Made by a program: the position numbers and the translations under genes
Notes under the pieces: model-generated
What the model was told of the DNA's origin: nothing
Databases searched by the model: none
What the model saw: the letters and a program-made list of their open reading frames with translations, nothing else
Assembly: GCA_041615815.1 (NCBI GenBank)
Contig: JBFJCP010000024.1
Location: 1-64,000 of the forward strand
Reading direction: 5' to 3'
Origin: Gemmatimonadales bacterium
Lineage (GTDB): Bacteria > Gemmatimonadota > Gemmatimonadetes > Gemmatimonadales > GWC2-71-9
DNA length: 64,000 nt
Part shown: in pieces, positions 2,296 to 26,953 of the stretch
Numbering within the stretch: position 1 is the stretch's first letter
Layout: the number at the start of each line of letters is the position of its first letter

Positions 2296-3348
2296 TCAAG
2301 GGCGCGGTTGTATTGATGCAATAGCGTCGAGGGGGGCAGGCGTGCGAGCGTCAGCGTCCTGCGTCTCCCGCCCTGGATCGCGTGCGTGCACCATGGGACG
2401 CGACGAGCGGTCCACCGTCAACTGAAAGACATCCGGCCGCCCATAGTGCCCCGCGACATCCAGCTGAAAGCGCGGACCCGTGTAGTGTCGCGGATCGATC
2501 TCTGCGTGCGGATCGATCTCTGCGTAGAGAATCTCCTGCGCCTTTTCCAGCGGCCCGGCAATGAACTTGCCGTCGGGATCGACAATGGCGCTCTCACCCG
2601 GGTTGATCCATTCCGGCACCCGCGCGAGATACCGTTCCATAAACTCATATCGCTCGGGAATGTCCGCCTTCCGAACGACACTGCAGCATCCGATGACGTA
2701 GACGCGCCCTTCTTTCGCGATGTGGCGCAGAGTGGACAACCACGGCTCCCCATGATCCCAGGTGGGGGCAACGTACAGTTGGGCACCCCACGCAAACATC
2801 GCGTATCGGGCGAGGGGCATGTAGTTCTCCCAACAAATCAGACCACCTAGCCGCCCCACCGGCAGATCGTAGACCTCGAGCGTGCTGCCGTCCCCCTGCG
2901 CATGCACCAGGCGTTCTCCGGAGGTCGGGACGAGCTTCCGATGCTTCCCGAGCAACCGGCCGTTGGCGTCGATATACACCAGCGTGTTGTAGAGCGTCGA
3001 TCCGCTGGCCTCGGCGTTTCGTTCGTTGACCCCTATCACGACGTGGACGCCCGCTTCACGCGCGGCCTGGCCCAACTGCTCGATCTCCGGACCCGGTACC
3101 GTGACCGCGTGCTCCACGAGCTCCGTGTACAGCGACCGCAGCGTCGCCGTGTCCCCCGACGGGACAAACCAAACCCAGAAGGGGTACGCCGGGACGAACG
3201 CTTCCGGAAATACGGCGAGCTTGGCACCGCCCCCGCCGGCATCGTGAATGAGACGGCAGGCCTTCTCGACCGTGGCGGTGCGATCCAAAAAAACCGGCGT
3301 CGCTTGCACGGCGGCCACACGGAATGGCTGAGTGGCGTTCACGCCCAT
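2296..3348 (-). CDS. Nitrilase / carbon-nitrogen hydrolase
   Basis: FPEAF (Glu), HRKLVPT (Lys), ICWENYMPLAR (Cys) catalytic triad; DVAGHYGRPDVF C-terminal motif. Confidence 0.93.
   Translation of the reverse strand: MGVNATQPFRVAAVQATPVFLDRTATVEKACRLIHDAGGGGAKLAVFPEAFVPAYPFWVWFVPSGDTATLRSLYTELVEHAVTVPGPEIEQLGQAAREAGVHVVIGVNERNAEASGSTLYNTLVYIDANGRLLGKHRKLVPTSGERLVHAQGDGSTLEVYDLPVGRLGGLICWENYMPLARYAMFAWGAQLYVAPTWDHGEPWLSTLRHIAKEGRVYVIGCCSVVRKADIPERYEFMERYLARVPEWINPGESAIVDPDGKFIAGPLEKAQEILYAEIDPHAEIDPRHYTGPRFQLDVAGHYGRPDVFQLTVDRSSRPMVHARDPGRETQDADARTPAPLDAIASIQPRP
2490..2525. repeat. Perfect 18-bp tandem duplication inside the nitrilase gene
   Basis: gcggatcgatctctgcgt x2; gives YAEIDP-HAEIDP in the protein. 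Confidence 0.95.
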
Positions 3349-6854: not shown

Positions 6855-8576
6855 CTACGGCTCCCGTTCCTGATCGTCCCGTGACCAGGCCGGTCCCTGA
6901 CAACGGCACAGCTCGCGCAGATAGCCCACCACCCGGTCGATTTCGTCCCCTGACAAGGTGAAGCCGAAGCCCGGCATCCGGTGATGGCGTCCCAGAATGT
7001 GCCCGCCGGCATGGATCCCATCGAAGAGCGTGTCGTCCGGCCGTGCGGACATGTATGCGCTGTCCGCGAGTCGCGTGGGACGCACTGGGAGGGTTGCGAC
7101 GTTGTATCCGTCACTGTTGCCGGAGGGCCCGTGGCAACCGGCGCAAAACCGTCCGTACAATCCGGCTCCGGAGGCATCCTGCGCTGCGTCGCGATTCCCG
7201 ACATCCAGTGGGGACACATAGGTGGCCGCCGAAGGCTCGCCGCCGCCACCGGACAGGAACGCCGCAAGCAGCGCCACTCGATCGTCCGGCATCGGGATGC
7301 GTGGCATCACCCGGTCGCCGAGCGCCGAACCCGGATCGCGAATGACAGCCGCGACGTACGCGGGACGGAGGCGGCGCCCCGCATCGCTGAGGTCCGGTCC
7401 GATCCGCCCTCCCTCACCGTCCAGGGCGTGACACCCGAGACACGGGAGCCGGTCCCGGATCAACGACCGCGCTTTGGCGCGGGAGAAGACGCTGAGGGCG
7501 GTGGGCTCCGCACCCAGCGGTGGCGGTGTCGATGCGCCTCGATCGAGATAGTCCATGATCGCGTCGATCTCGGCAGGCGACAGATCGAAGTCCGGCATTC
7601 GGCTCCACGTACCGGCAGGAAATCCGGACGGGCGCACCGGTTGCGGACCGGCAAGAAAACGCCGAATCCAATCAAGCTCGAGGCGACGCGTCACCCCAAG
7701 GAGCCGTGGCCCCAGCGCCGCGCCGTATCCGTCCGGTCCCTTGTGACACCCCCCACACCCCAGGGATCGAAAGAGGGTGGCTCCATCCGCCGCCGCAACG
7801 TTCGCGTATCGGCGCTGCGCACGCTCGAATGCCCGACCCTGCTCTGCGCGTGTCTCGGACGCGAGCGAGATCAAGAACGCGACGACCGCGCCGAGCCGCG
7901 AGGCCGCGTCGGGGTGGACGGGATGAGCGCGGCCGTCCCGCCGCTCGAAGAAGAGATCCGGCATCGGCGTCGTGGAATCGAAGGCGCGTGGATCCATCAG
8001 GTACCGATGGATCCATGCTTCGTTCAATCGCTCACCCACGCGCTCCAGGGCGATCGCGCTTCCCCCGCCACTCTCGCCGAGCGTGTGGCAACCCAGACAT
8101 CCGAGATCGGACCGGACGAGGCGTTCGCCGTCGCGCGCGGCGTTGCGGCCGCCACGCGCGGCGTCGGGTGGCGGCTGCGGATCGCTGACCGGTAAAGTCG
8201 TAAGCGACGAGAGGAAGAGCGTGAGCGCCACCCGCTCCCGCTCATCGAGCGGAAACCGTGGCATACGAGAAGCTCCGATGTGACGCCGGAGCCGCGTGGG
8301 GTTGTCGAGGTAGGTAAAGAGGTGTCCCGGTGCGAAGCGGCGACCTGCATCCGCGAGGGGTGGAGCGGGCGATCGAACCGTGCGTTCCGCGAGATCTCGA
8401 TGACACGTGGCGCAGCCCAACTCCGCCACGAGGGCAGCGGGGTCCGTGATGACAACCGAAGGATCTGCCTGGTGGCGTGTCGAATCCGCCGGAGCCGATC
8501 GGACACGATCGACGGCACCGAGCGCAATCAATGTCAACACGAGAACCCCAGCGGTGGGCAGCGCTCTGCGGGTCAT
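6855..8576 (-). CDS. Secreted multi-domain cytochrome c (5 CxxCH)
   Basis: Signal peptide; CATCH, CLGCH, CGGCH, CLGCH, CAGCH, each followed by a downstream MP motif typical of His/Met class I domains. Confidence 0.9.
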   Translation of the reverse strand: MTRRALPTAGVLVLTLIALGAVDRVRSAPADSTRHQADPSVVITDPAALVAELGCATCHRDLAERTVRSPAPPLADAGRRFAPGHLFTYLDNPTRLRRHIGASRMPRFPLDERERVALTLFLSSLTTLPVSDPQPPPDAARGGRNAARDGERLVRSDLGCLGCHTLGESGGGSAIALERVGERLNEAWIHRYLMDPRAFDSTTPMPDLFFERRDGRAHPVHPDAASRLGAVVAFLISLASETRAEQGRAFERAQRRYANVAAADGATLFRSLGCGGCHKGPDGYGAALGPRLLGVTRRLELDWIRRFLAGPQPVRPSGFPAGTWSRMPDFDLSPAEIDAIMDYLDRGASTPPPLGAEPTALSVFSRAKARSLIRDRLPCLGCHALDGEGGRIGPDLSDAGRRLRPAYVAAVIRDPGSALGDRVMPRIPMPDDRVALLAAFLSGGGGEPSAATYVSPLDVGNRDAAQDASGAGLYGRFCAGCHGPSGNSDGYNVATLPVRPTRLADSAYMSARPDDTLFDGIHAGGHILGRHHRMPGFGFTLSGDEIDRVVGYLRELCRCQGPAWSRDDQEREP

Positions 8577-14036: not shown

Positions 14037-14197
14037 AAATACCCTCCGTGTGGCGGACTCCCCCAACTCATATTCAACACCACCGGGTGAAAGAGCCGTG
14101 AACTCCTCATGAAGCGGGATTGCTTGCGCGCAACGCTTGTGGCGGTACGATTGAGCCAGGTCTCGGTCCTGACTTCACGCCCCTCCGGAGGGACTCG

Positions 14198-16861
14198 ATG
14201 CGCTCCATGTTCTCAGCCGCGCTCATGGCTACTCTGCTGCTGGTCTCAGCTGCCCCACGTGCTGCCGTCGGCCAGGCCATTCCCTCGCCCGCAGCGCATT
14301 TCGGTTTCGAGCTCGGCACCGACGGCCGGCTTGCGTCCTGGAACGCCCTGGTGGCGTACTACCACCAACTGGCGGAAGCATCGGACCGGGTCCGGGTGCG
14401 AGAACTCGGAACGACCGTCCGGGAGAACCCGTTTCTGTTGGTGACGATTTCATCGCCCGCCAACCTCGCCAACGCGGACCGACTGCGCGAGATCAGCCGT
14501 CAGCTGGCGGATCCCCGCGGTCTCTCCGATGCGCAGGTCGCGCGCCTCGTGTCCGAGGGCAAGGCCGTCGTGGCGGTCACAGTGGGGCTCCACTCCACGG
14601 AGGTCGCCGCCAATCAAATGGCGCCGGGACTCGCCTATCGACTCGCGACGGCCACGGACGCCGAGACCCGTGCCGTGCTCGACAACGTCGTGTTTCTGCT
14701 GTTCCCGTCGTTCAATCCCGATGGGCACCAGATGGTGACGCGGTGGGTGGACAGCACGCGGGGAACGCCCTACGCGGGCTCGAGACTCCCGGAGATGTAC
14801 CACCACTACGTGGGACACGACAACAACCGGGACGCGTACATGCTGACGCAGAACGAAGCGCAGTTCTTTGCCCGGGTCGTGTATCACGAGTGGATTCCAC
14901 AGTGGTACTTGGACGTGCACCAAATGGGGAGTTACGGTCCACGCCTCTACGTCCCGCCGTACGACGATCCCATCAATCCCAACGTGGACCCCCTCGTGTG
15001 GACTGAGCATGATTTGGTGGGTGCCAACATGGTGATGGCGCTCGAACGCGCGGGGTTCACCGGCGTAGCTACGGGCACGTACTACACCGGTTGGTGGTTC
15101 CCGTCATTCCACATGGCCACAAACCACCACAACATTGCCGGCATGCTCACCGAGTCCGCCAGCGCCAATATGGCGGAGCCGCTCATGATTCACGAGCAGC
15201 AGCTGGCGGAGCACGGACGCAAGCATCGCGCCTATGAACGAATGCAAGTATTTCCCCATCCCTGGAAGGGCGGTTGGTGGCGCGTCGCGGACATCATCCG
15301 TCAACAGCACGCCAGCACCTACGCCCTGCTCACCACCGCGGCCAAGTATCGGGAGACGGTGTTGTGGAATATGGTGCTCAAGGCCCGCCGAACGATGGAA
15401 CGTGGCCTGACGGAACCCCCGTTTGGGTTTGTGGTTCCGATTGCGCAACACGATCCCCTGACAGTCCACAAGTTCATCACGATCCTGATGAACAATGGAA
15501 TCGAGGTGCAGCGCGCCCTTGATGACTTCGTGCACGGTGGGAGAGCCTACCGGGGCGGCGACTACGTGATCTCCACCGCACAGCCGAATGGCATTCTCGT
15601 GCGCTCGCTGCTCTCCCGCACGTTTTATCCGGATAACGCCATCACGCGACGGGACGACGGACGCATCGTGCGTCCCTACGATATGGCAAACTTCGTGCTC
15701 GCCGAGCAGATGGGGGTGACGGCCATTCCGCTGGAGACGCATCTCGAAACACCGCTGGCCATGGTGACGGATCCACCACAACCGGTGGGCCGCATCCATG
15801 GATCGGGAAGTGCTGGTTGGCTCGTCTCCCATGCCGTCAACGACGCGTTTCGCGTAACCAACGCTGTCCTCGCCGACGGCGGAAGCGTGTTCTGGCTGCG
15901 GCAGCCTCTCGAGGTCGGCGACCAACGATTCGGGCCGGGTACCCTATGGATTCCGGCGGGACGGACGTCCAGCAGCCGCGTGCAGGCCCTGGCGCGGGAG
16001 ACCGGAGTCGACTTCACTGCCCTGTCCACGCCGCCAACCGGCCCCGCTTATCGCCTCAACCCCCTCCGATTGGCCACCTACCGCCGCTACTCGGGCGAGC
16101 AATTGGACGAGGGCTGGAGCCGGTATCTCTTCGACACCTGGGGATTCCCGTATCGACGGTTGGAGGCAGATGCGATTCGGAGCGGTGGGCTCCAGAACAT
16201 CGATGTCTTGCTGGTGCCGTCGGACGGACTGTCACGACTCAAGGGCGAGGGGGACGTGTCTCCACCCGGTGAGGGCAAGGCCGATGAATACCCCGAAACG
16301 TTTCTGCCGCCACGTTTTACTGAGGGACTGGACGAGCAGGCCATCGAGACCATCAAGGCATTCGTCAAGCGGGGCGGCGCGCTGGTTCTGCTCGATCACG
16401 CTTCCGAGTTGGCCCTGGAAGAAATGGGCATCCCGGTACGCAATCTGGTGGAGGGCTTGGAGGCGGAGGAGTACTTCAGCCCCGGATCGAACCTATGGGT
16501 TCGGTACGACACCACCCACCCGCTGGCATACGGAATGCCGGAGAGGGGCCTGGTACTCAACTGGGGCAGTCCGGTCTACCGGGTAGACCGGACGGCATTC
16601 AACGCGAGGATCGCGGCACCCATCCGCTACGTAGACCGTGATCCATTACAGAGTGGGTGGCTGGTGGGCGCGCAGCACATTACCGGGCAGCCGGCGGCGC
16701 TCGACGTGGAATACGGCCGCGGCCGAATCCTCTTGATCGGATTCCGGGCTCAACATCGGGCGCAGACCCATGGCACGTTCAAGGTGTTCTTCAACGCGCT
16801 CTACTATGGAGCAGCGGACGGCATCGAGCTGGGCGGTGTCGCGGCTGGTGGATCGCCTTGA
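14198..16861 (+). CDS. Secreted M14 zinc carboxypeptidase family protein
   Basis: GGAGG RBS, signal peptide, HSTE, NPDG, DNNRD, DVHQMG, LTE; C-terminal GATase-like domain. Confidence 0.9.
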   Translation: MRSMFSAALMATLLLVSAAPRAAVGQAIPSPAAHFGFELGTDGRLASWNALVAYYHQLAEASDRVRVRELGTTVRENPFLLVTISSPANLANADRLREISRQLADPRGLSDAQVARLVSEGKAVVAVTVGLHSTEVAANQMAPGLAYRLATATDAETRAVLDNVVFLLFPSFNPDGHQMVTRWVDSTRGTPYAGSRLPEMYHHYVGHDNNRDAYMLTQNEAQFFARVVYHEWIPQWYLDVHQMGSYGPRLYVPPYDDPINPNVDPLVWTEHDLVGANMVMALERAGFTGVATGTYYTGWWFPSFHMATNHHNIAGMLTESASANMAEPLMIHEQQLAEHGRKHRAYERMQVFPHPWKGGWWRVADIIRQQHASTYALLTTAAKYRETVLWNMVLKARRTMERGLTEPPFGFVVPIAQHDPLTVHKFITILMNNGIEVQRALDDFVHGGRAYRGGDYVISTAQPNGILVRSLLSRTFYPDNAITRRDDGRIVRPYDMANFVLAEQMGVTAIPLETHLETPLAMVTDPPQPVGRIHGSGSAGWLVSHAVNDAFRVTNAVLADGGSVFWLRQPLEVGDQRFGPGTLWIPAGRTSSSRVQALARETGVDFTALSTPPTGPAYRLNPLRLATYRRYSGEQLDEGWSRYLFDTWGFPYRRLEADAIRSGGLQNIDVLLVPSDGLSRLKGEGDVSPPGEGKADEYPETFLPPRFTEGLDEQAIETIKAFVKRGGALVLLDHASELALEEMGIPVRNLVEGLEAEEYFSPGSNLWVRYDTTHPLAYGMPERGLVLNWGSPVYRVDRTAFNARIAAPIRYVDRDPLQSGWLVGAQHITGQPAALDVEYGRGRILLIGFRAQHRAQTHGTFKVFFNALYYGAADGIELGGVAAGGSP

Positions 16862-17720: not shown

Positions 17721-19181
17721 TCAGTGTCCCACGGCCGGACTCCCAATCTCATCCGCGTATGTCTCGCGCAGGCGCTCCAGATACTCGTCGAACAAGGTCG
17801 CCATGGTTCGATGTTCTTCCGCCACCATCTCGCGGAAGCGGCGGTCCGTCAGAAAATGGTAGAGCACCGCCGTCATGATCTTCGCGTCCAATAGGAATCC
17901 GGTGTGCCCTACGGGCTTCATCGAGTCGAGCCAGCGTTCGATCGTATGGCCCGCCGCGGGTGAGCTGAACACGCTCACGCCCACCCCGGGAATATCGCGG
18001 GTGAGAAAGCCGGTTTCCTCATACCCCGCCGGGCGCTGCGCCTCGGGGTTGATCTCGGGCGCATCGAGCGCCTCGGCATAGGCGAACGCCAGCTCCTCCA
18101 AAGTTCCCAGGGTAATCCCGTCACGGTATTCGCCGTATCGCTCTATGGTCACCTTGGTGCCAGTGGCCATGGCGGCGCCGCGGGCGGCGTTGGCCATCAT
18201 CGAATCCATGTGCGCCAGATACACCTCGTCCGGATATCGGATGTAGTAGTCGACCACCGCCCGCTCCGGCACCACGTTGGGGGCAATGCCCGCTTCGGGC
18301 ATGACGCCTTGGATGGACGCCTCCGGACGGAACGTGGGGCGCAACGCATCGACGGCCGAATAGAACATCACCGCCGCCGAGAGCGCATTACGTCCGTGCC
18401 AGGAAGCCCGCTGGTGCGCCGCTTTCCCCTCGAACACGTACTTGACTTCATTGATGTTGAGACAGCACACGCCAAAGCCTGCGCGGTTGCGCGCAGTCTC
18501 GTTGGACCCGTGGCTCCGAATGAGAATGTCCGCCCCGTCAAATACCCCTGCTTCCCACATGATGGTCTTGGCCGGCGGTCCCACCTCCTCGGCCGGCGTC
18601 CCATAGACGCGAACGCGACCCGGCACCCCCTTCTCCCGCATGTACTCTGCGATGGCAATCGCGGTGGCAAACCCGACGGGACTTTGGGCGTTGTGCTGAC
18701 AGCCGTGGAACGGCTCGGTGGTGCTGCGTAACGCGTCGTACTCTACGATGATGCCGAGGGTGGGCCCGTTGGTGCCGGCCGGCGAGTCCCAGCGGCCCAC
18801 GAAGGCCGTCTCGAGATCCGCCTGCCCCGTCTCCACCGCGAACCCGAAGCCACGGAGGACGGCGGTGAGCGTGTCGACCGACTCGTACTCCTTCCACCCC
18901 ACCTCGGGGTGCTTTCCGATGTGGTCGCTCAAATCGCGCATTCCACCAACCCACAACTCGTCGATGCGCGCCAGCAACCGATCCCGATCCCCATCGCGCT
19001 TGGTGGCCATCCGGCGGCTCGTCTGGGCAGGCTTCAAACGGTCCTGCAACGCGTCGATCTGGCGAATGATGTCCCGAGCGGCCGCCCGCTCAGTGGGCGT
19101 CGTCTGTGCTGGGGCACTCAACGGAAACAGGAAGGCGACCAACAGCATCGCCACAGCCAAGGCGGGGCGCAAAATCCGCAT
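17721..19181 (-). CDS. Secreted M20 family amidohydrolase (AbgB/ACY1L2-like)
   Basis: Signal peptide; HPEVGWKE, EYDAL, HGCQHN, GTPAEE, NVVPERA. Confidence 0.88.
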   Translation of the reverse strand: MRILRPALAVAMLLVAFLFPLSAPAQTTPTERAAARDIIRQIDALQDRLKPAQTSRRMATKRDGDRDRLLARIDELWVGGMRDLSDHIGKHPEVGWKEYESVDTLTAVLRGFGFAVETGQADLETAFVGRWDSPAGTNGPTLGIIVEYDALRSTTEPFHGCQHNAQSPVGFATAIAIAEYMREKGVPGRVRVYGTPAEEVGPPAKTIMWEAGVFDGADILIRSHGSNETARNRAGFGVCCLNINEVKYVFEGKAAHQRASWHGRNALSAAVMFYSAVDALRPTFRPEASIQGVMPEAGIAPNVVPERAVVDYYIRYPDEVYLAHMDSMMANAARGAAMATGTKVTIERYGEYRDGITLGTLEELAFAYAEALDAPEINPEAQRPAGYEETGFLTRDIPGVGVSVFSSPAAGHTIERWLDSMKPVGHTGFLLDAKIMTAVLYHFLTDRRFREMVAEEHRTMATLFDEYLERLRETYADEIGSPAVGH

Positions 19182-19367
19182 GAGAGGACCTCCGGCAGGT
19201 TGCGTAGACGGCGTGGACCCTCGGTAGTGTAGATCTTGGGAGCGTAGCTGGAAAGTACCGGCACGGCACCGACCGGCGCATCGTGCCGCCCCACGCAGGA
19301 AAGGGGTCCGTGATGCGGGAAACGAATGTGGGATGAACAACGCCGGTCGGGTATGATGTCCGTGCGG

Positions 19368-19610
19368 CGCGGGAAGGCTTGCTCGGGTTGGGCATCATCC
19401 CTTCGCGGCCAGAGCGCTACCGAGAGGTGCCGGTGGAGCGAACCTGGTCACTGCGGCAACGCAAGCCTTCGGGCTCACGCCCATTGGGTGAGAAACCCAC
19501 CACCGGCACCGGCCGCACCACCGAGAGGAGGGACACGACGGCCGCGGGCCACCACCGCAGGTGGCCATGCGAAACCGGGTCGGGAGTCATGGCCTCCCGA
19601 CATTTCGCGT
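19368..19610 (+). ncRNA. Candidate structured non-coding RNA, family not recognised
   Basis: 11-bp stem 19426-19436/19500-19510 enclosing tgcg-GCAA-cgca, agcc-TTCG-ggct and tggg-TGAGAAA-ccca hairpins; more hairpins on both sides; TATGAT at 19352-19357. Confidence 0.5.
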
Positions 19611-19658: not shown

Positions 19659-20660
19659 CTAGGGCCTCCACCTGGCAGCAGACTCGTTGGCTTGGTTGCC
19701 ATCGAGCACGCCCGGCTCGCTCCCATTGGCCCGGGCGATCACAATGTCCCAGTTGCCGAATCGGTTGCTTTCAAAAGCCAGTCGACTGCCGTCGGGTGAC
19801 CACGATGGCGCACTCTCGCTCGAGCCTAGCTGGGTGACGTTGACCGGGGGGGCACCGCCCACCTGCCATACGAAGATCTCCCAGTCCCCCTGTCGGTTGC
19901 TTTCGAACGCGATACGCGTACCGTCCGGTGACCACGCGGGGTTTTCGTCGAACGCGGCACTGCCCGAGATATTCAACAGTCCGGTGCCATCGGCATGGAT
20001 CACCAACAACTCACTCGCCCCGGCGCGATTACTGGTGAAGGCCACCCTCGTCCCGGCCGGATCCCAGACCGGTGAGAAGTCGTCACTGTCCGGATTATTC
20101 GTCAGGTTCTGCGGATCACTCCCATCCGCGTTCATGACGTAGATATCGCTCCTGAAACCCCTCGTGGTCGTATAGGCAATGCGGGGGCCCTCCGGCGACC
20201 ACGCCGGATCGGTATCGAAGGCGGGATGATTCGTGAGGTTCCGCAACCCGTCACCATTCCAATCCACCACGTAGATCTCGGGATCGCCGTCCCTGGCGCT
20301 CTCGAAGACGACATGCCGGCTGTTTGGCGCCCACGCCGGCGATCCATCCCGTGCGCCGTGTTGGCTCACGTTGCGGATCCTGGGCAGGCTCGTAAAGAAG
20401 TCGACGACGTAGACCTCGTCATTCCCATCACGGTTGCTCACGAACGCCAAACGCCACCCGTCCGGCGACCAGGTTGGCTCCCGATCCCGCCCGGGATGCT
20501 CGCTCACATTGAGCAGGCGGCCGCTCTCGAACACCACGTACACCTCTTCATTACCGTCGCGGTTGCTCACGAACGCCATGGCCGGCACACCACCCGGCTC
20601 GGCGGTCTGACCGCACGCGGCAGTGGCGAGCAACAGGACGGAGACGATCACGCAGCGCAT
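19659..20660 (-). CDS. TolB-like (PD40/WD40 repeat) lipoprotein
   Basis: Lipobox TAAC; repeated PxWSPDGxxxAFxSNRDG units. Confidence 0.9.
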   Translation of the reverse strand: MRCVIVSVLLLATAACGQTAEPGGVPAMAFVSNRDGNEEVYVVFESGRLLNVSEHPGRDREPTWSPDGWRLAFVSNRDGNDEVYVVDFFTSLPRIRNVSQHGARDGSPAWAPNSRHVVFESARDGDPEIYVVDWNGDGLRNLTNHPAFDTDPAWSPEGPRIAYTTTRGFRSDIYVMNADGSDPQNLTNNPDSDDFSPVWDPAGTRVAFTSNRAGASELLVIHADGTGLLNISGSAAFDENPAWSPDGTRIAFESNRQGDWEIFVWQVGGAPPVNVTQLGSSESAPSWSPDGSRLAFESNRFGNWDIVIARANGSEPGVLDGNQANESAARWRP

Positions 20661-20667
20661 GCAAGTC

Positions 20668-22290
20668 TCAGGGTTGGGACGCCCCGCCAGCCGCAGCGGC
20701 GGTGGGATGGTCCAGGAGATACCGTCGCAGATCCCCCACGTCGTAGCGCCCGTTTTCATTACCCACGGCGTCGAGATAGGCCTGATCGTCGGCGGTGAGC
20801 ATGCCCACGCCACCCATGAATGGACCCGCGAGCTGGCTCAGCGGAATCACCGTCGTCGACACGCGGATGCGGGCGCGGTCCGTCTCGAGATGGATGGCAT
20901 AGATCGACACCGAGGATGCGGCACCCGAATTGAGGCGAGCGGAGGGAGTGGTACGATTGGTGAGCCGGGTCATGGCGTGTCCGAATGCGTCTCCCGCTTC
21001 GCCTCGATTTCCTCCATTGGTCATGTCGAGCCGGAGACCGTCGTTGGCGTCCGCCTCGAGGAGCTGGACTTGGTAGATACGCTCGCATGAGCGGCAGGGC
21101 CGGCGAAGCCGCGTGTCGTCCACGTGGTAGACCAGGACCCCCGCCGCCGGCAGGTCTTGGTCGAACCCTTGCTGGTCCCGATACTCGACCAGGAGGTACT
21201 CTTTCGAGGAAAGGGGGAGCTGCAGGACATGTCCCGTAGTGCGAACCGGAAGGATCTCGATCTCCGCATTGCGCACGTCACCAACGATCTCGAGGTCCAA
21301 CCACCCCAGCTCCAGCTTCTCCCAAGCCCCGAAATGCGGCGGTCGCCGCACGGCAGCGCGATTCAGCGGCCTTCCACATCCCCACGCTCCCGCCGCCATC
21401 AACGCCCAACAGCCCACGACCCAACGGCGCCGCTCCGGCAGGATGCCTTCCGTACTGTCATACAGATCCGGCAATCCGAGCACGTGGCCAAGTTCGTGGG
21501 CAATGGTAGCCGCATTTTGTACCGCACCTCCGTCACAGGTCACCGTACTCTGGATGATGTAATCGTTGACCAGTACCGGCGACCCGTCTGGACGGAGATC
21601 GTTGGTGCGATACGGCTCGCCCATCCAGTTGGCGAGGGTGGACCGATGCGGCCAGATCCCCGGTCCGGGACACGACGCCGCAATCTCGAGAAACTGAAAC
21701 GCAACCGCGTCCACGAATCCGTCGTCATCACCGCTGTTGGGTACCCCGTCCGGCCCATCGTTATCGAACAGCCCGAAGTCGGCGGCTTGATCCGCTTGGG
21801 CGACCGCCTGCACCAGATAGACACCCGTCTGACTTCCGCTCAAGCCAAAGCTGCTCCCCACCGTTTGCCGGAGGGTGATCTGGGTTCGCACCCAGGGAAG
21901 CGCCTGGCCAGTGACGGTGAACCGACCTCCGGAGGCTTCGGCGAAGAACTCCGTGAGTGTTCCATTGTCCGTTGGACCGTCGAACAGCGCGCGCTGGACA
22001 TCGTCTTGGGAGAACGCCGGCTGCGGCGAGTCCGCAAACAGCGCCAAAATCACGACCAGCGGCAGCTCCCCTGAGACTGGTTGCCGCAGCATAGCCGACG
22101 CCTTGGTGCGGGCAATCCACCCACGTTCGATCTCGAAGAAGTCCGGCTTCGCCGTGACGCGTTCGAAATAGGCCGCCGGCAGCGGCTGCTCCGTTACCTG
22201 CGAGGTCATTTCGATGTCTTGCGCCGCAACGCCGGGAACGAGCGTGATCCCAAGACCGAGCCCCACCCACGGCGAAGTGCGCCGTCTCAT
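20668..22290 (-). CDS. M6 family (immune inhibitor A-like) metalloprotease
   Basis: Signal peptide, FDNDGPDGVPNSGDDDGFVD, IWPH, AHELGHVLGLPDLYD, WALM Met-turn, EYLLVEYR. Confidence 0.9.
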   Translation of the reverse strand: MRRRTSPWVGLGLGITLVPGVAAQDIEMTSQVTEQPLPAAYFERVTAKPDFFEIERGWIARTKASAMLRQPVSGELPLVVILALFADSPQPAFSQDDVQRALFDGPTDNGTLTEFFAEASGGRFTVTGQALPWVRTQITLRQTVGSSFGLSGSQTGVYLVQAVAQADQAADFGLFDNDGPDGVPNSGDDDGFVDAVAFQFLEIAASCPGPGIWPHRSTLANWMGEPYRTNDLRPDGSPVLVNDYIIQSTVTCDGGAVQNAATIAHELGHVLGLPDLYDSTEGILPERRRWVVGCWALMAAGAWGCGRPLNRAAVRRPPHFGAWEKLELGWLDLEIVGDVRNAEIEILPVRTTGHVLQLPLSSKEYLLVEYRDQQGFDQDLPAAGVLVYHVDDTRLRRPCRSCERIYQVQLLEADANDGLRLDMTNGGNRGEAGDAFGHAMTRLTNRTTPSARLNSGAASSVSIYAIHLETDRARIRVSTTVIPLSQLAGPFMGGVGMLTADDQAYLDAVGNENGRYDVGDLRRYLLDHPTAAAAGGASQP

Positions 22291-23505: not shown

Positions 23506-25136
23506 ACCACCCACCCAACCGCGCTGCTGCCCGCGGGTCCGCCGTCATAGAGTCCGACGTGTGCATCATCGGTTCGGGCATCACGGCCGCGCTTCTGGCG
23601 GAACGCCTCACCGAAGAACGCGACGTCCGCGTCGTCGTCGTCGAAGCGGGTGACGCGCCCATTCCCCTCGCGCGGCGTCACGCACACCGTCAGCGGTATC
23701 TCGATTATGGCGAAAACCCGTGGCCCAGGGACCATGTGGATGGTCTGGAAGTGGATGGAATGCAGTCACGGTCCATGTGCGTCGGGGGCCTCGCCATGCA
23801 CTGGGGCGGGGTCACGCCCAGGTTCAGTCCGGAAGACTTTCGTCTCCGCTCCTTGTATGGCGTGGGAGACGACTGGCCGCTCACGTATGAGGACCTGGAA
23901 CCCGATTATCTCGACGCGGAAGTCCGCATGGGCGTTGCCGGCGAGGAGGGCCCGCCGGAGCTCGATCCGCGCTCGGCGCCCTATCCCCTCCCACCGCTAC
24001 CGCTCTCGTACAACCTTCGCCAGCTGCACACCTGGGCGGACCGCGCGGGCATCGCCTTCTGGACCCAGCCCTCGGCGAAGAACTCCGTCGCCTACCGCGG
24101 GCGCCCGGTGTGCTGCCGCAACGATACGTGCTCACCTATTTGTCCCACGGGCGCCAAATACACACCGGATGTGACCTGGAACGCCCTTACCGCGGGCGGC
24201 AAGGTCGACCTCGTCACCCGTACGGTCGTGCGCCGGTTAGTTGCAGCGGCCGGGTCCAACAAGATCGAACGGGCCGTCGCAATGGATCGCGACGATCCGG
24301 ACCGGGACCTCGAATTCCGAGCCACCACGTTCATCGTGGCCGCTGGGTACGTCTGGAGCTCCCATCTCCTCCTGCTCTCGACCTCCAGCCGTTTCCCGAC
24401 CGGCCTGGCGAACCGGTCCGGTCTCGTGGGCAAATACTTGAGCGGCCACCGGAGCGTGAGCGCCCACCTCGAGCTCCCGCTCGAGCTGTATCCCGGAATC
24501 AACGTCCACCACAGTCTCGTGTCGAAGCAGTTCATGCGTCCGGGGCCGCTCCCCAGGTACATGCGGCACGATCTCCGGATCTGGGAATCGACCTTCGGCC
24601 GAGAACCGCGGCTCAGAAACGCGCAAGGACAGGTACAGTTGGGCGATGCCATTCTTGCGGACTGGCGCGACCGCACACGGCGTGGCGCAGCGCGGGTTCG
24701 GGCCTATTACGATGTATTGCCAGCGCGGGGGAGCGAGCTCACGTTGGACCCCACCCGCAAGACCCCGTGGGGCGATCCGTTGCCCCGCCTCGCGTTCCGC
24801 GACAGCGAGATCTCCCGAACACTGCGACGAGAAACGGAAACCGAGATTCACGCGCTGTTTCAGCGCATGGCCCGCGTGGGCGACGGAACGATTCTGTGGT
24901 CCGGTGTGAACGAGTTTCAGGATCATCCCGCTGGAGGGTGTCGCATGGGAAACGACGCGGATACCAGCGTCTGCGATAGTTCCGGACGCACGCACGATCA
25001 CGAGAATCTGTTCGTGGTGGGGGCGCCGACGATGGTGACCGGTGGCTGCGCCAACGGTACCCTGACGTTCGTGGCCCTGGGTCTTCGCGCCGCTCGCGAG
25101 ATCGGACGAGCATTTCCGACTAGGAAAGCCCGATGA
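23502..25136 (+). CDS. GMC family flavoprotein dehydrogenase large subunit
   Basis: DVCIIGSGITAA, CCRNDTCSPICP (3Fe-4S-type Cys motif), HPAGGCRMG, ANGTLT. Confidence 0.9.
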   Translation: MNHPPNRAAARGSAVIESDVCIIGSGITAALLAERLTEERDVRVVVVEAGDAPIPLARRHAHRQRYLDYGENPWPRDHVDGLEVDGMQSRSMCVGGLAMHWGGVTPRFSPEDFRLRSLYGVGDDWPLTYEDLEPDYLDAEVRMGVAGEEGPPELDPRSAPYPLPPLPLSYNLRQLHTWADRAGIAFWTQPSAKNSVAYRGRPVCCRNDTCSPICPTGAKYTPDVTWNALTAGGKVDLVTRTVVRRLVAAAGSNKIERAVAMDRDDPDRDLEFRATTFIVAAGYVWSSHLLLLSTSSRFPTGLANRSGLVGKYLSGHRSVSAHLELPLELYPGINVHHSLVSKQFMRPGPLPRYMRHDLRIWESTFGREPRLRNAQGQVQLGDAILADWRDRTRRGAARVRAYYDVLPARGSELTLDPTRKTPWGDPLPRLAFRDSEISRTLRRETETEIHALFQRMARVGDGTILWSGVNEFQDHPAGGCRMGNDADTSVCDSSGRTHDHENLFVVGAPTMVTGGCANGTLTFVALGLRAAREIGRAFPTRKAR

Positions 25137-26953
25137 ACCGTTCATGGCAGATCGGCATCTGCGCCGGGACGATCCTCCTGGCCACGCTCGTCGGTGCAGC
25201 AACCGCGCAGGACCGGCCGACCGCGAGGGATACACTCGCCGCCGCGGTTCGCTCTGCAATCACCCAAGATGCCTTGACGCGACACGCGCGTGCCATCGTC
25301 GCACACGAACGGCCCTCCGGCAGTCCGGGTGAAAATGCCGCCATCGACTATATCCTCGAAACGTTGCGGAATGCCGGCGTGCCGGTCGAGGTGCACACGT
25401 TTCTGGCCTATGCGAGCGATCCGGTGGCTGCCGCCGTCGAGGTCGTGGGCGAGTTACGCAGGATGGACGCCATCACGATGGCGTTCTCCGGATCCGCGCG
25501 CAATTTAGAGGCGCCCCTGGTGGACGTCGGCCGTCTTCGCGACCTCCCGCAGCTCGAAGTGGGGACGGGCGAGCGGTTGGTCTTGCCTTCGTCTCCCGGC
25601 CGTCTTACCCCAGATCTCACCGGCGCCATTGCCTTGGTGGAGGGACAACCGCGCAATGTTCCCACCAGCGTGCTGGCGCAACTCGGCGCCGTCGGGATCA
25701 TCTTCGTCAACCCGGAAGAGCGTCTCAATGATCTGATCGTCACGTCCACTTGGGGGGTGCCGTCGCTGCGGAACTTCCACCGGCTCCCGACGATTCCAGT
25801 GGCACAGGTCAAGAAGAGCGACGGTGAGCGCCTGCGTACCCGCCTCGCCCGGGGGCCCGTGCGCGTCCGCCTCACCACCGAAGTGAGTTCGGGTTGGAAA
25901 CCCCTGCGCCTCGCCGTGGCCCGCATCCCCGGCCCCGACCCGCGCGCTCCCCTCGTCGTCCTTGGCGGGCATATCGACGGGTGGTATCACGGTGCCACCG
26001 ACGAAGGCGCTTCCAACGCCGCGATGATCGAGCTCGCAATCGCCTTCCATCGGCACCGCGAAGGCCTGCGCCGGGGTCTCGTGGTCGCCTGGTGGCCGGG
26101 ACACAGCAACGCGCGCTACGCCGGATCCACCTGGTTTGCCGATCGATTCGATGAATCACTGCGAACGAGAGGGATTGCCTATCTCAACATCGATGGCGTT
26201 GGGCAACGTGGCGCCAAACGCTTCGGTGCGTCGACAACATCCTCGATGGCGGCGCTCGCGTCACACATTCTCCGCCAGCGCACCGGCGCCCAAGTCGTTC
26301 CTGGTCGCCCCGGCCGCAACTCGGACCAATCGTTCAACGGAATTGGTCTGGCACTCTTGCAGTTTCATCACACCAGACTGCCTGAGGACGGGGGATATTG
26401 GTGGTGGCATACCCCGGACGACACGTTTGACAAGATCGACGTTGAGATTCTGGAAACGGATACCGATCTGTACGTCGACGCGCTTGCCGCGCTCCTGGTG
26501 GAACCGGTGGTCCCACTCGATATTGCTGCGGAAGTCGAGGCGCTGGGACAGGAGATGGAGCGGCGCGCGCTTCAGGCCAATGGCCGGTTCGATCTCTCGG
26601 CCGCGCACCGAAAACAAGAGCGCCTCCTCATCCTCGCGCGGGAGATTCAAAGTATCCTCGAACGGGAGAGTAAGGACGACGGCGGAATCGATCTCGCGTT
26701 GATGGGAATTCTTCGCCCACTCCTTCGCGTGCTGTACTCGCCTTCCGATCCGTTCCATCCCGACCCAGGGATCGACCTCGGCCTCTTACCGGGGATGGCA
26801 CCGGTGACGATGCTCGCGACCGAACCGTTCGAGAGCGACCGGTACGGCTTTGCCGAAACCACGCTGGTGCGGGAACGCAACCGATTGCTCGATGCGCTCA
26901 CCCGCGCCACCGGTGAGGCGGAGCGGCTGTTGGCGCAGCTGCGCGAACGATAG
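25133..26953 (+). CDS. Secreted M28 family peptidase with PA-like insert
   Basis: Signal peptide; GGHIDGW, GATD, YLNID, WHTPDDT. Confidence 0.85.
   Translation: MNRSWQIGICAGTILLATLVGAATAQDRPTARDTLAAAVRSAITQDALTRHARAIVAHERPSGSPGENAAIDYILETLRNAGVPVEVHTFLAYASDPVAAAVEVVGELRRMDAITMAFSGSARNLEAPLVDVGRLRDLPQLEVGTGERLVLPSSPGRLTPDLTGAIALVEGQPRNVPTSVLAQLGAVGIIFVNPEERLNDLIVTSTWGVPSLRNFHRLPTIPVAQVKKSDGERLRTRLARGPVRVRLTTEVSSGWKPLRLAVARIPGPDPRAPLVVLGGHIDGWYHGATDEGASNAAMIELAIAFHRHREGLRRGLVVAWWPGHSNARYAGSTWFADRFDESLRTRGIAYLNIDGVGQRGAKRFGASTTSSMAALASHILRQRTGAQVVPGRPGRNSDQSFNGIGLALLQFHHTRLPEDGGYWWWHTPDDTFDKIDVEILETDTDLYVDALAALLVEPVVPLDIAAEVEALGQEMERRALQANGRFDLSAAHRKQERLLILAREIQSILERESKDDGGIDLALMGILRPLLRVLYSPSDPFHPDPGIDLGLLPGMAPVTMLATEPFESDRYGFAETTLVRERNRLLDALTRATGEAERLLAQLRER

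Follow-up and report, generated by a model that had tools for sequence, protein, structure and literature searches.

A candidate two-RNA cassette of a leucine-type tRNA with a non-leucine anticodon and a cognate antisense RNA in Gemmatimonadales, and a disabled copy of it

The DNA analyzed here (the window) comprises 64,000 nt of a Gemmatimonadales bacterium (assembly GCA_041615815.1, contig JBFJCP010000024.1, positions 1 to 64,000, forward strand), and carries at 19352..19610 of its + strand an element that an initial annotation had described as a novel structured RNA with a core like that of a transfer RNA (tRNA). We find that this element is virtually certain to belong to a family of short cassettes in which a tRNA gene with a leucine-type body and a non-leucine anticodon is accompanied by a gene for a small RNA complementary to its anticodon arm. 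Intact members would be, with a probability of about 0.6 and judging from their sequences, protein-free two-RNA modules: a leucine-charged miscoding tRNA and an antisense RNA forming a toxin-antitoxin pair that works by mistranslation. The window holds what is to all appearance a disabled copy of the cassette, in which the determinants of decoding and charging are lost and the antisense promoter is deleted, with the rest of the fold kept.

Only 1 of 60 relatives (G036) matched the whole element (69%, BLAST E 1.8e-9), and the match starts at the −10 box. The core there scores 60.1 bits on RF00005 and is an undamaged tRNA, leucine-type in its body and carrying a threonine anticodon; likenesses of the window element to a riboswitch, signal recognition particle RNA, Y RNA or a group II intron were dropped on finding this homologue. 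When 301 genomes of the order were searched with the G036 tRNA locus, 72 matched, many through ordinary tRNA-Leu; among the best 30 loci of that search, 28 were the same cassette and 2 were ordinary tRNA-Leu. A GTDB search with a pattern for nothing beyond a Leu-type tRNA with a pyrimidine at position 36 gave at least 122 stretches with 122 distinct tRNAs; decayed copies, that of the window included, escape this pattern. Among the matches listed, 113 of the 122 tRNAs had a complementary segment of at least 10 Watson-Crick pairs 40–70 nt past A73, and a cognate antisense was present for all 109 tRNAs with a Gemmatimonad title. The other antisense-bearing tRNAs listed came from one 'bacterium HR33', one Deltaproteobacteria-titled bin and two Acidobacteriota; the 9 tRNAs listed without antisense all came from other groups. 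Non-Leu anticodons with a purine at position 36 were found in 0 of the 301 genomes.

The cassette is thus far seen in more than 100 Gemmatimonadales loci and in two Acidobacteriota, with up to 4 copies per genome. Of 401 sampled genomes of the phylum, 25 matched; they fall into two families (21 of 165 and 4 of 5) within a single order. In the Acidobacteriota classes, query genomes aside, a match reaching beyond the tRNA body was obtained in 1 of 200 and 0 of 200 sampled genomes; the single match is G681, and no claim is based on it. The two Acidobacteriota members, L163 (285-368, − strand; Gly-CCC) and L164 (285-369, − strand; Asp-GUC), have a simpler cassette without the long leader: a TTGACA-type promoter directly 5′ of the Leu-body tRNA, a second promoter, the cognate antisense and a terminator. 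Among viral contigs the leader pattern gave 0 matches and the tRNA pattern 1, without antisense; phages (2 records) and plasmids (8 records) matched in the tRNA body only.

The order of parts in intact members is a promoter, a leader of ~70 nt, the Leu-body tRNA, a second sigma-70 promoter, an RNA of ~75 nt and a terminator. The tRNA is a 7/5 cloverleaf with a long variable arm; it shows covariation, and 97.1% of the alignment cells of the cloverleaf and terminator are paired. Intact members score 48–60 bits on RF00005 and have G1-C72. Among standard-length members U8, G18, G19, U55 and C56 were present in 103 of 103, A73 in 102 of 103 and G3.U70 in 2 of 103; in a larger set A73 was found in 113 of 116. 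Intact members therefore carry the sequence determinants of tRNA-Leu (A73, U8-A14, G18-U55, G19-C56 and the long variable arm; A14 is the column labelled '15' in our position profile). Several of these bases were part of the search pattern; the 28 members found by BLAST also carry A73. Anticodons, read in 116 of 125 distinct tRNAs from all loci, were Ala (49), Val (41), Glu (11), Asp (6), Thr (6), Gly (2) and Ile (1), on 106 distinct anticodon arms. The matching codons GCC, GCG, GAG, GTG, GGC and GAC rank 2–7 in 1873 long open reading frames (ORFs) of G000, the genome in which the window element was found. An Rfam search of 7 intact loci returned only tRNA above the gathering score, with no family (riboswitches, YrlA, 6S, SRP, tmRNA and others) for the leader or the antisense RNA.

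The antisense RNA very probably targets its own tRNA. The second promoter, of the form TTG-N16-18-NANNNT when the spacing is measured from where the −35 hexamer ends, is present in 114 of 115 spacers (shuffle mean 4.7, maximum 11), and it ends, in the modal case, 6 nt 5′ of the complementary segment. The ~75-nt RNA is laid out as an anti-anticodon segment, a hairpin and a terminator, whose helix shows 95.1% pairing and double changes at 5 of 7 pairs. Of the 348 pairs that face the anticodon, 343 were Watson-Crick and 5 were G.U (shuffle mean 215, maximum 240), a count inflated by the choice of register by best duplex. In a fixed register the antisense:arm duplex was 90.1% paired with 124 double changes, against 39 when shuffled, and the own trailer was the best partner in 28 of 28. 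The duplex contains 48 G.U and 22 A.C, an excess expected for RNA pairing of this strand. As a control, the five ordinary tRNA-Leu genes of G000 had downstream complementary runs of only 5–7.

On a 113-member tree for which arm and partner were both left out (as were the 2 Acidobacteriota rows; bootstrap not settled), the amino-acid label changed 45 times, with at least 14 changes involving Ala forced by well-supported branches; the match between anticodon and antisense has thus been remade many times. Among paralogues in 23 genomes, 9 of 96 ordered pairs cross-matched, and the own partner matched in 99 of 113. No terminator was seen between the tRNA unit and the antisense unit, so that the antisense segment may be present in cis on the primary transcript as well.

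The tRNA unit has a −10 box (of 74 leader-aligned members, 66% have A at −11 and 68% have T at −7) without a clear −35 box. Upstream lies a direct repeat with a 20-bp period, recovered as an expectation-maximization motif in 115 upstream regions (mean 18.1 bits vs. ~7 shuffled), which we infer to be a putative regulator site replacing the −35 box. A genome-wide regulon marked by this repeat was rejected (67 matches in G000 vs. 66 in a shuffled genome). The best match in the genome (G000:C36:36480, 23.6 bits) has a −10-like stretch ~20 nt later and may be a promoter under the same regulator. The leader pairs in a fixed register with the D arm and anticodon arm of the tRNA (84.9% of 1206 cells), with 80 double changes vs. 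33 shuffled; slid registers reached at most 43%. This set consists of 44 sequences of alignment A2, the window copy among them. A free-register test was weak (best partner in 3 of 28 and 16 of 115). A cis-regulatory role of the leader for a downstream gene was considered and rejected: 49 of 76 downstream ORFs lie on the other strand, and their families vary.

We propose that a regulated promoter makes a precursor whose leader, by the covarying pairing, folds onto the 5′ half of the tRNA and would delay its maturation. In type I toxin-antitoxin systems, primary toxin transcripts are inactive and their maturation is delayed. Processing would then free a tRNA with the leucine identity set and an anticodon for GNN or ACN/AUN codons. 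Leucyl-tRNA synthetase (LeuRS), indifferent to the anticodon arm, would charge it, and leucine would enter Ala, Val, Glu, Asp, Thr and Gly codons proteome-wide. For leucylation, A73, U8-A14, G18-U55, G19-C56 and the variable arm's orientation are crucial, and the anticodon arm is dispensable, according to the available portions of PMC2377443 and PMC9976931. Meanwhile the second sigma-70 promoter would make the ~75-nt RNA, whose free 5′ end is predicted to pair with the anticodon loop and the 5′ strand of its stem, and which would block or destroy the tRNA or its precursor. Should antisense synthesis stop, the stable tRNA would poison translation, as an addiction or abortive module. Missense allo-tRNAs killed E. 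coli (PMC5389517, as far as its accessible text goes), and tRNA-ProX species were toxic in E. coli to varying degrees (PMC10404621, accessible text). We judge that (i) leucine miscoding is probably the activity under control; and (ii) that activity may, on balance, serve a toxin-antitoxin role rather than a benign dial. Taken further, the cassettes might form an all-RNA class spanning at least two phyla, with a leucine-charged tRNA toxin of swappable anticodon and an anticodon-capping antitoxin, which would evolve together with the leader lock so that every new anticodon arm gives a largely orthogonal pair, perhaps acting as abortive defence by corrupting the proteome when host transcription stops, the window copy being a disarmed end state that is perhaps kept for a new job; we hold this wider proposal to be slightly better than even.

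Several observations weigh against the toxin-antitoxin interpretation. Val, Thr and Ile members may, by the usual identity rules, be charged correctly by their own synthetases. C33 replaces U33 in 29 of 103 members, and a full 5-bp anticodon stem is missing in 20 of 116; both are expected to make decoding weaker. Of 115 predicted ensembles, only 44 are dominated by the leader-locked fold and 37 by the anticodon stem, and the leader/trailer and leader-hairpin register tested was 65.9% paired vs. 63.1% shuffled. Paralogues were not more orthogonal than random pairs (9 of 96 vs. 4.4%). The 9 Leu-body miscoding tRNAs from outside Gemmatimonadota have no adjacent antisense, and no antisense follows the tRNA part in L262/L274 and L255. 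In L262/L274 a cognate unit lies 5′ of the tRNA in the same orientation, which would need action in trans; the contig ends ~70 nt past the tRNA. A means of mobility was not apparent: no integrase, transposase or recombinase Pfam family was present among the 152 nearest ORFs (85 members with enough flank), and no whole cassette was matched in phages or plasmids.

The window copy can be aligned with the family part by part, all on the + strand. The family hidden Markov model (positions 13-262) aligns with window 19282-19521, covering the upstream repeat, leader, tRNA and trailer (E 4.1e-10 in G000). A degenerate copy of the 20-bp-period repeat lies at 19293..19330 (7.9 bits, below the 25th percentile of the family). 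The −10-like box of the tRNA unit, TATGAT, is at 19352..19357, exactly where the G036 homology begins. By the fixed-register family pairing and the window fold, the leader (19362..19425) is an imperfect antisense of the tRNA 5′ half; 19373-82 pairs with 19461-70, and a 7-bp helix that had been missed before joins 19362-68 to 19512-18. The disarmed Leu-type tRNA (19429..19508), delimited by alignment to the intact G036 tRNA, the family model and the profile of 103 members, has its acceptor stem at 19429-35/19501-07, lengthened by 19426-28/19508-10, a D arm at 19438-54, a variable arm at 19471-82, a T arm at 19485-99 and A73 at 19508. Its anticodon arm is broken, with a 3-nt deletion in the stem and the former anticodon CGC (Ala, the commonest) at 19460-62, and the bases at U8, G9, A15, A20a, A22, U33, U55, C56 and U60 are changed. 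The trailer and shortened spacer follow (19509..19537); here the −35 box of the antisense promoter is deleted and its −10 box eroded (a gap of ~20–29 columns in alignment A2, and no TTG within 19511-19600). The antisense, or antitoxin-like, RNA remnant (19538..19566) retains an eroded anti-anticodon segment, with a longest run of 6 Watson-Crick pairs against its own arm (at least 10 in intact members), and a hairpin (19547-53/19560-66). At 19569..19608 stands a terminator-type hairpin with a weak U tract, whose core (19579-86/19594-601) is homologous to the family helix.

Every feature listed in the initial annotation is present at its place, among them the TATGAT box, an 11-bp stem at 19426-36/19500-10, the complement of 19373-82 with 19461-70 and the hairpin at 19547-66; its last hairpin, put at 19569-608, exists with a paired part of 19579-601. 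It was right about the + strand, an own promoter and a tRNA-like core, and the alternative pairing that it proposed is real, in that the same leader:anticodon-arm pairing covaries across the family. Its tRNA mimic is indeed tRNA-like; the fold is not new, being that of a class II Leu-type tRNA gene with mutated arm and tertiary bases. The GCAA-tetraloop hairpin is the refolded product of the broken anticodon arm. The cUUCGg hairpin competes with the real variable arm (19471-82), and it is the variable arm that the minimum free energy (MFE) structure prefers. The two 3′ hairpins belong to the second, separately promoted antisense RNA gene, which the annotation had not recognized. A degenerate tRNA remnant, which the same annotation had named as its own refutation, describes the window copy. 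Of the checks that it proposed, the Rfam search of the window matched no known family (nothing above the gathering score; 3 chance matches, E 1.9-9.5), and the homologue and covariation search gave more than 100 related loci in which leader, tRNA and antisense pairings covary.

The 85-nt core (19426-19510) folds better than shuffled sequences (z −4.59; 0 of 200 as good), and the whole 259 nt only modestly so (z −2.50 on the + strand, −1.62 on the − strand). The 10-nt alternative pairing has a predicted P of 0.013 in the window, 3.6 kcal/mol above the MFE. ARAGORN reported 0 tRNA genes in the window, also at -ps90, and a consensus scan of the window gave no full sigma-70 promoter. The window copy shows homology over the upstream repeat, leader, tRNA body and trailer; it falls below the RF00005 cloverleaf threshold, lacks an intact anticodon arm and the tertiary bases, and has neither a second promoter nor a cognate antisense of at least 10 bp. 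It is either a relic or a repurposed RNA.

Four other explanations were weighed. The same molecules could be benign: the host would use them as a dial to tune adaptive mistranslation, or the population would profit from a translation poison that phage triggers, with the upstream repeat as the on switch and the antisense as the silencer. The conserved repeat in place of the −35 box of the tRNA promoter would suit such control, 90 of 116 anticodons are Ala or Val (the mildest Leu substitutions), tRNA-ProX mistranslation is reported to raise antibiotic tolerance (PMC10404621, in the text available), and divergent Ser/Thr kinases make up 13 of 78 upstream neighbours (G000 itself has 59 kinase genes; kin inflate the count). 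The family is, however, patchy within genera, duplicates and frequently decays, its 106 distinct arms among 116 members are a diversity that a host dial would not need, and the long leader is missing from the two Acidobacteriota members, whose promoter is of a plain TTGACA type; we consider a benign dial improbable. That the tRNA does not miscode leucine at all appears less probable still; uncharged or cognately charged, it would stall ribosomes or trigger the stringent response, decoy a synthetase or nuclease, or serve as an additional Val/Thr tRNA, at a level set by the antisense. In favour of this reading are C33 (29 of 103) and the Val anticodons (41 of 116), A35, C36 and A73 being valine determinants. 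Some allo-tRNAs were inactive in translation, and yet two caused cell death (PMC5389517, accessible text). Across members all the reported LeuRS determinants are almost constant, although the anticodon shifts among seven amino acids, and Ala members lack G3.U70. Moreover, G000 already has ordinary Ala-CGC and Thr-GGU tRNAs and all five Leu anticodons, on which ground a gap-filling tRNA was rejected as well for Ala, Thr and Leu.

The downstream segment might also be a DNA-level inverted repeat (an invertible switch, an attachment site or a template-switch by-product) and no RNA regulator. It is an 11–21 bp inverted copy of the anticodon arm, a known integrase target region, and template switching could make both sides change together. 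This is very improbable given the sigma-70 promoter at a fixed distance and the terminator of its own, the G.U excess, the absence of an adjoining recombinase and of any inverted form among the aligned loci, and the cognate unit 5′ of the tRNA in the same orientation in L262/L274 (contig end ~70 nt later). For the window copy alone, domestication as a tRNA-shaped RNA kept for its fold after loss of tRNA function is a minority possibility, which we doubt. At positions at least 85% conserved, 1 of 32 stem bases was changed (to G.U) vs. 8 of 17 loop bases (Fisher p 0.0004), and in a related strain (run X6, another study) 1 of 12 contig differences fell inside 19352-19610, at an unpaired base (703-nt contig, depth 4.6, 2 of the 12 differences unplaced; binomial p 0.03-0.07); together these are a weak hint of continued selection. 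Runs X1, X3 and X5, from which this DNA may itself derive, contribute no further evidence. However, the loop bias has p 0.06 for G/C positions only, a one-base T-stem deletion below the conservation cut-off was left uncounted, the variant was found in no second lineage (7 of 7 metagenome matches to a pattern with the TGAGAAA T loop were chance; none in G001 or G002 at the syntenic site), and selection to disarm a toxic tRNA would also strike loop bases first. Disarming followed by slow decay explains the hint of continued selection as well.

The window element sits in a gap of 476 bp, at the position given before (with a length of 480 bp), between two genes that, as had been stated, are both on the minus strand. 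These lie outside the cassette: an M20-family peptidase gene (17721..19182, −; PF07687/PF01546; ortholog in G001), divergent from it, and a PD40/TolB-like beta-propeller gene (19659..20813, −; PF07676), convergent with it, for which 20813 is the end of the longest ORF, the gene itself probably beginning closer to 20650. G001 belongs to the same genus and has both genes with only 81 bp between them, an empty gap without a trace of the element, which was thus gained or lost in one piece. G000 has a single copy of the element; BLAST and the family model found only ordinary tRNAs besides. Peptidases (M6, M14, M20, M28) are abundant in the neighbourhood, which also contains two GMC oxidoreductases; the regions concerned are 20668-22290 (−), 14120-16861 (+) and 25133-26953 (+). 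G000 has 59 Ser/Thr kinase domains and one tRNA-Sec, and default ARAGORN listed no Ser-GGA or Val-CAC tRNA in it, perhaps through assembly gaps.

Across the family, neighbours are varied and include some type II toxin-antitoxin and nuclease families; no Cas family and no conserved partner protein gene was present among the 152 nearest ORFs. The 13 upstream Ser/Thr kinase genes are all divergent from the cassette (L039, L057, L059, L070, L079, L091, L098, L104, L107, L135, L138, L143 and L146); a shared regulator or an insertion preference is possible. In L119 (1348-2337) a divergent member stands head to head with an RtcB RNA ligase gene. Weaker matches include three partial copies (L247, L258, L259) that lack the tRNA 5′ half and keep the promoter and antisense gene, which fits loss of the toxin first, and L255, with part of the tRNA and no antisense gene. 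L275 (G146:C53) has three units in 10 kb (12-262, 3123-3277 and 7077-7447), namely a complete unit, a second that lacks the tRNA 3′ half and has a non-cognate antisense, and a partial third; by its layout this is local duplication and decay.

Other unusual tRNAs were encountered outside the family. L161 (285-368, an Ignavibacteria bin) is a Leu-body Glu-UUC tRNA without antisense just 5′ of an ORF whose start resembles dnaK. Two Chloroflexota bins (L113 1041-1127, L177 283-369) share a Leu-like long-arm Gly-CCC tRNA with no adjacent antisense. Long-arm tRNAs without antisense were also seen in Patescibacteria (L145 2483-2569; Asp-GUC, encoded CCA), in Terriglobia (L173 283-368; Ala-UGC) and in a Gammaproteobacteria-titled record (L094 2485-2568; Ile-UAU, within a tRNA array). 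IMG/VR and Variovorax contigs (L190 2480-2760, = L176) share a tRNA-like Asp-GUC sequence whose acceptor stem is poor; next to it comes an irregular long-arm tRNA of 99 nt (Ser-ACU by ARAGORN).

Miscoding tRNAs are known from nature, and here a control element, which might allow a cell to carry a lethal one, adjoins the gene and changes base-for-base with the anticodon. If the proposal is true, the cassette would combine a new toxin mechanism (programmed mistranslation) with a new antitoxin mechanism (anticodon masking by a small RNA), without any protein. It would explain tRNA genes that annotators label Ala, Val, Glu or Asp, and would provide a simple screen (tRNA, promoter, inverted arm, terminator) for allo-tRNAs and other mismatched tRNAs. 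At ~350 bp, the cassettes could supply natural orthogonal tRNA/anti-tRNA pairs with which recoding could be switched and tuned. It is the family, more than the window copy, that is novel; taken alone the copy is a degenerate tRNA and matters mainly as a lead and as a case of disarming.

In type I systems such as hok/sok and tisB/istR, a folded toxin transcript is inactive, and a short antisense RNA, which has a terminator hairpin and leaves its 5′ end free, controls it. The cassette differs in that it has no toxic peptide and its regulated product is a tRNA. Its tRNA body is closely like tRNA-Leu(UAA) of the same order (RF00005); ordinary tRNA-Leu genes, in contrast, have no downstream complement, and the cassette adds a non-Leu anticodon, an antisense leader and a cognate antisense gene. 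According to the available text of PMC5389517, allo-tRNAs share the long variable arm, an anticodon unrelated to identity and many anticodons, cause lethal missense suppression in E. coli and lie near toxin-antitoxin genes in soil bacteria; they have an 8/4 or 9/3 branch, Ser/Ala identity and G73/U73, whereas the cassette tRNAs have a 7/5 branch, Leu identity and A73. The main text of that paper does not contain the terms antisense, complementary, leader or Gemmatimonad, nor its supplement antisense, complementary or Gemmatimonad. The tRNA-ProX species (PMC10404621, available text) are likewise natural bacterial tRNAs, with the body of one amino acid and Ala, Thr or Asn anticodons, and toxic in E. 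coli; they have Pro identity and are encoded with ProRSx (proSx) and murG, whereas the cassette tRNAs have G1-C72 and a long variable arm and the cassette has no conserved partner protein gene, and antisense or antitoxin is mentioned 0 times in that text. The available parts of reviews of mistranslating and non-canonical tRNAs (PMC11415595, PMC7609411) do not mention antisense, and no cassette of this kind was described in any title or abstract that a literature search returned (bioRxiv supplements and subscription journals lie outside its scope). The cassette is apparently new: a dedicated anti-anticodon RNA gene beside a miscoding tRNA is not known from any other system.

The closest formal class is type VIII, in which both partners are RNAs (PMC10767807, available text). 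As in SdsR-RyeA and CreTA, the cassette has, by its sequence, two non-coding RNAs from adjacent genes with their own promoters. SdsR and RyeA overlap on opposite strands, whereas the cassette genes do not overlap and share one strand. CreT sequesters tRNA, and CreA represses transcription and needs Cas proteins (PMC8501985, available text); the CreTA antitoxin derives from a CRISPR repeat and lies beside cas, whereas the cassette antisense derives from the tRNA. In further difference from type VIII, the cassette toxin would be a miscoding tRNA and its antitoxin an inverted copy of the anticodon arm. If toxicity holds, the cassette would be classed as type VIII, and a cautious reader may prefer to call it a new type VIII variant.
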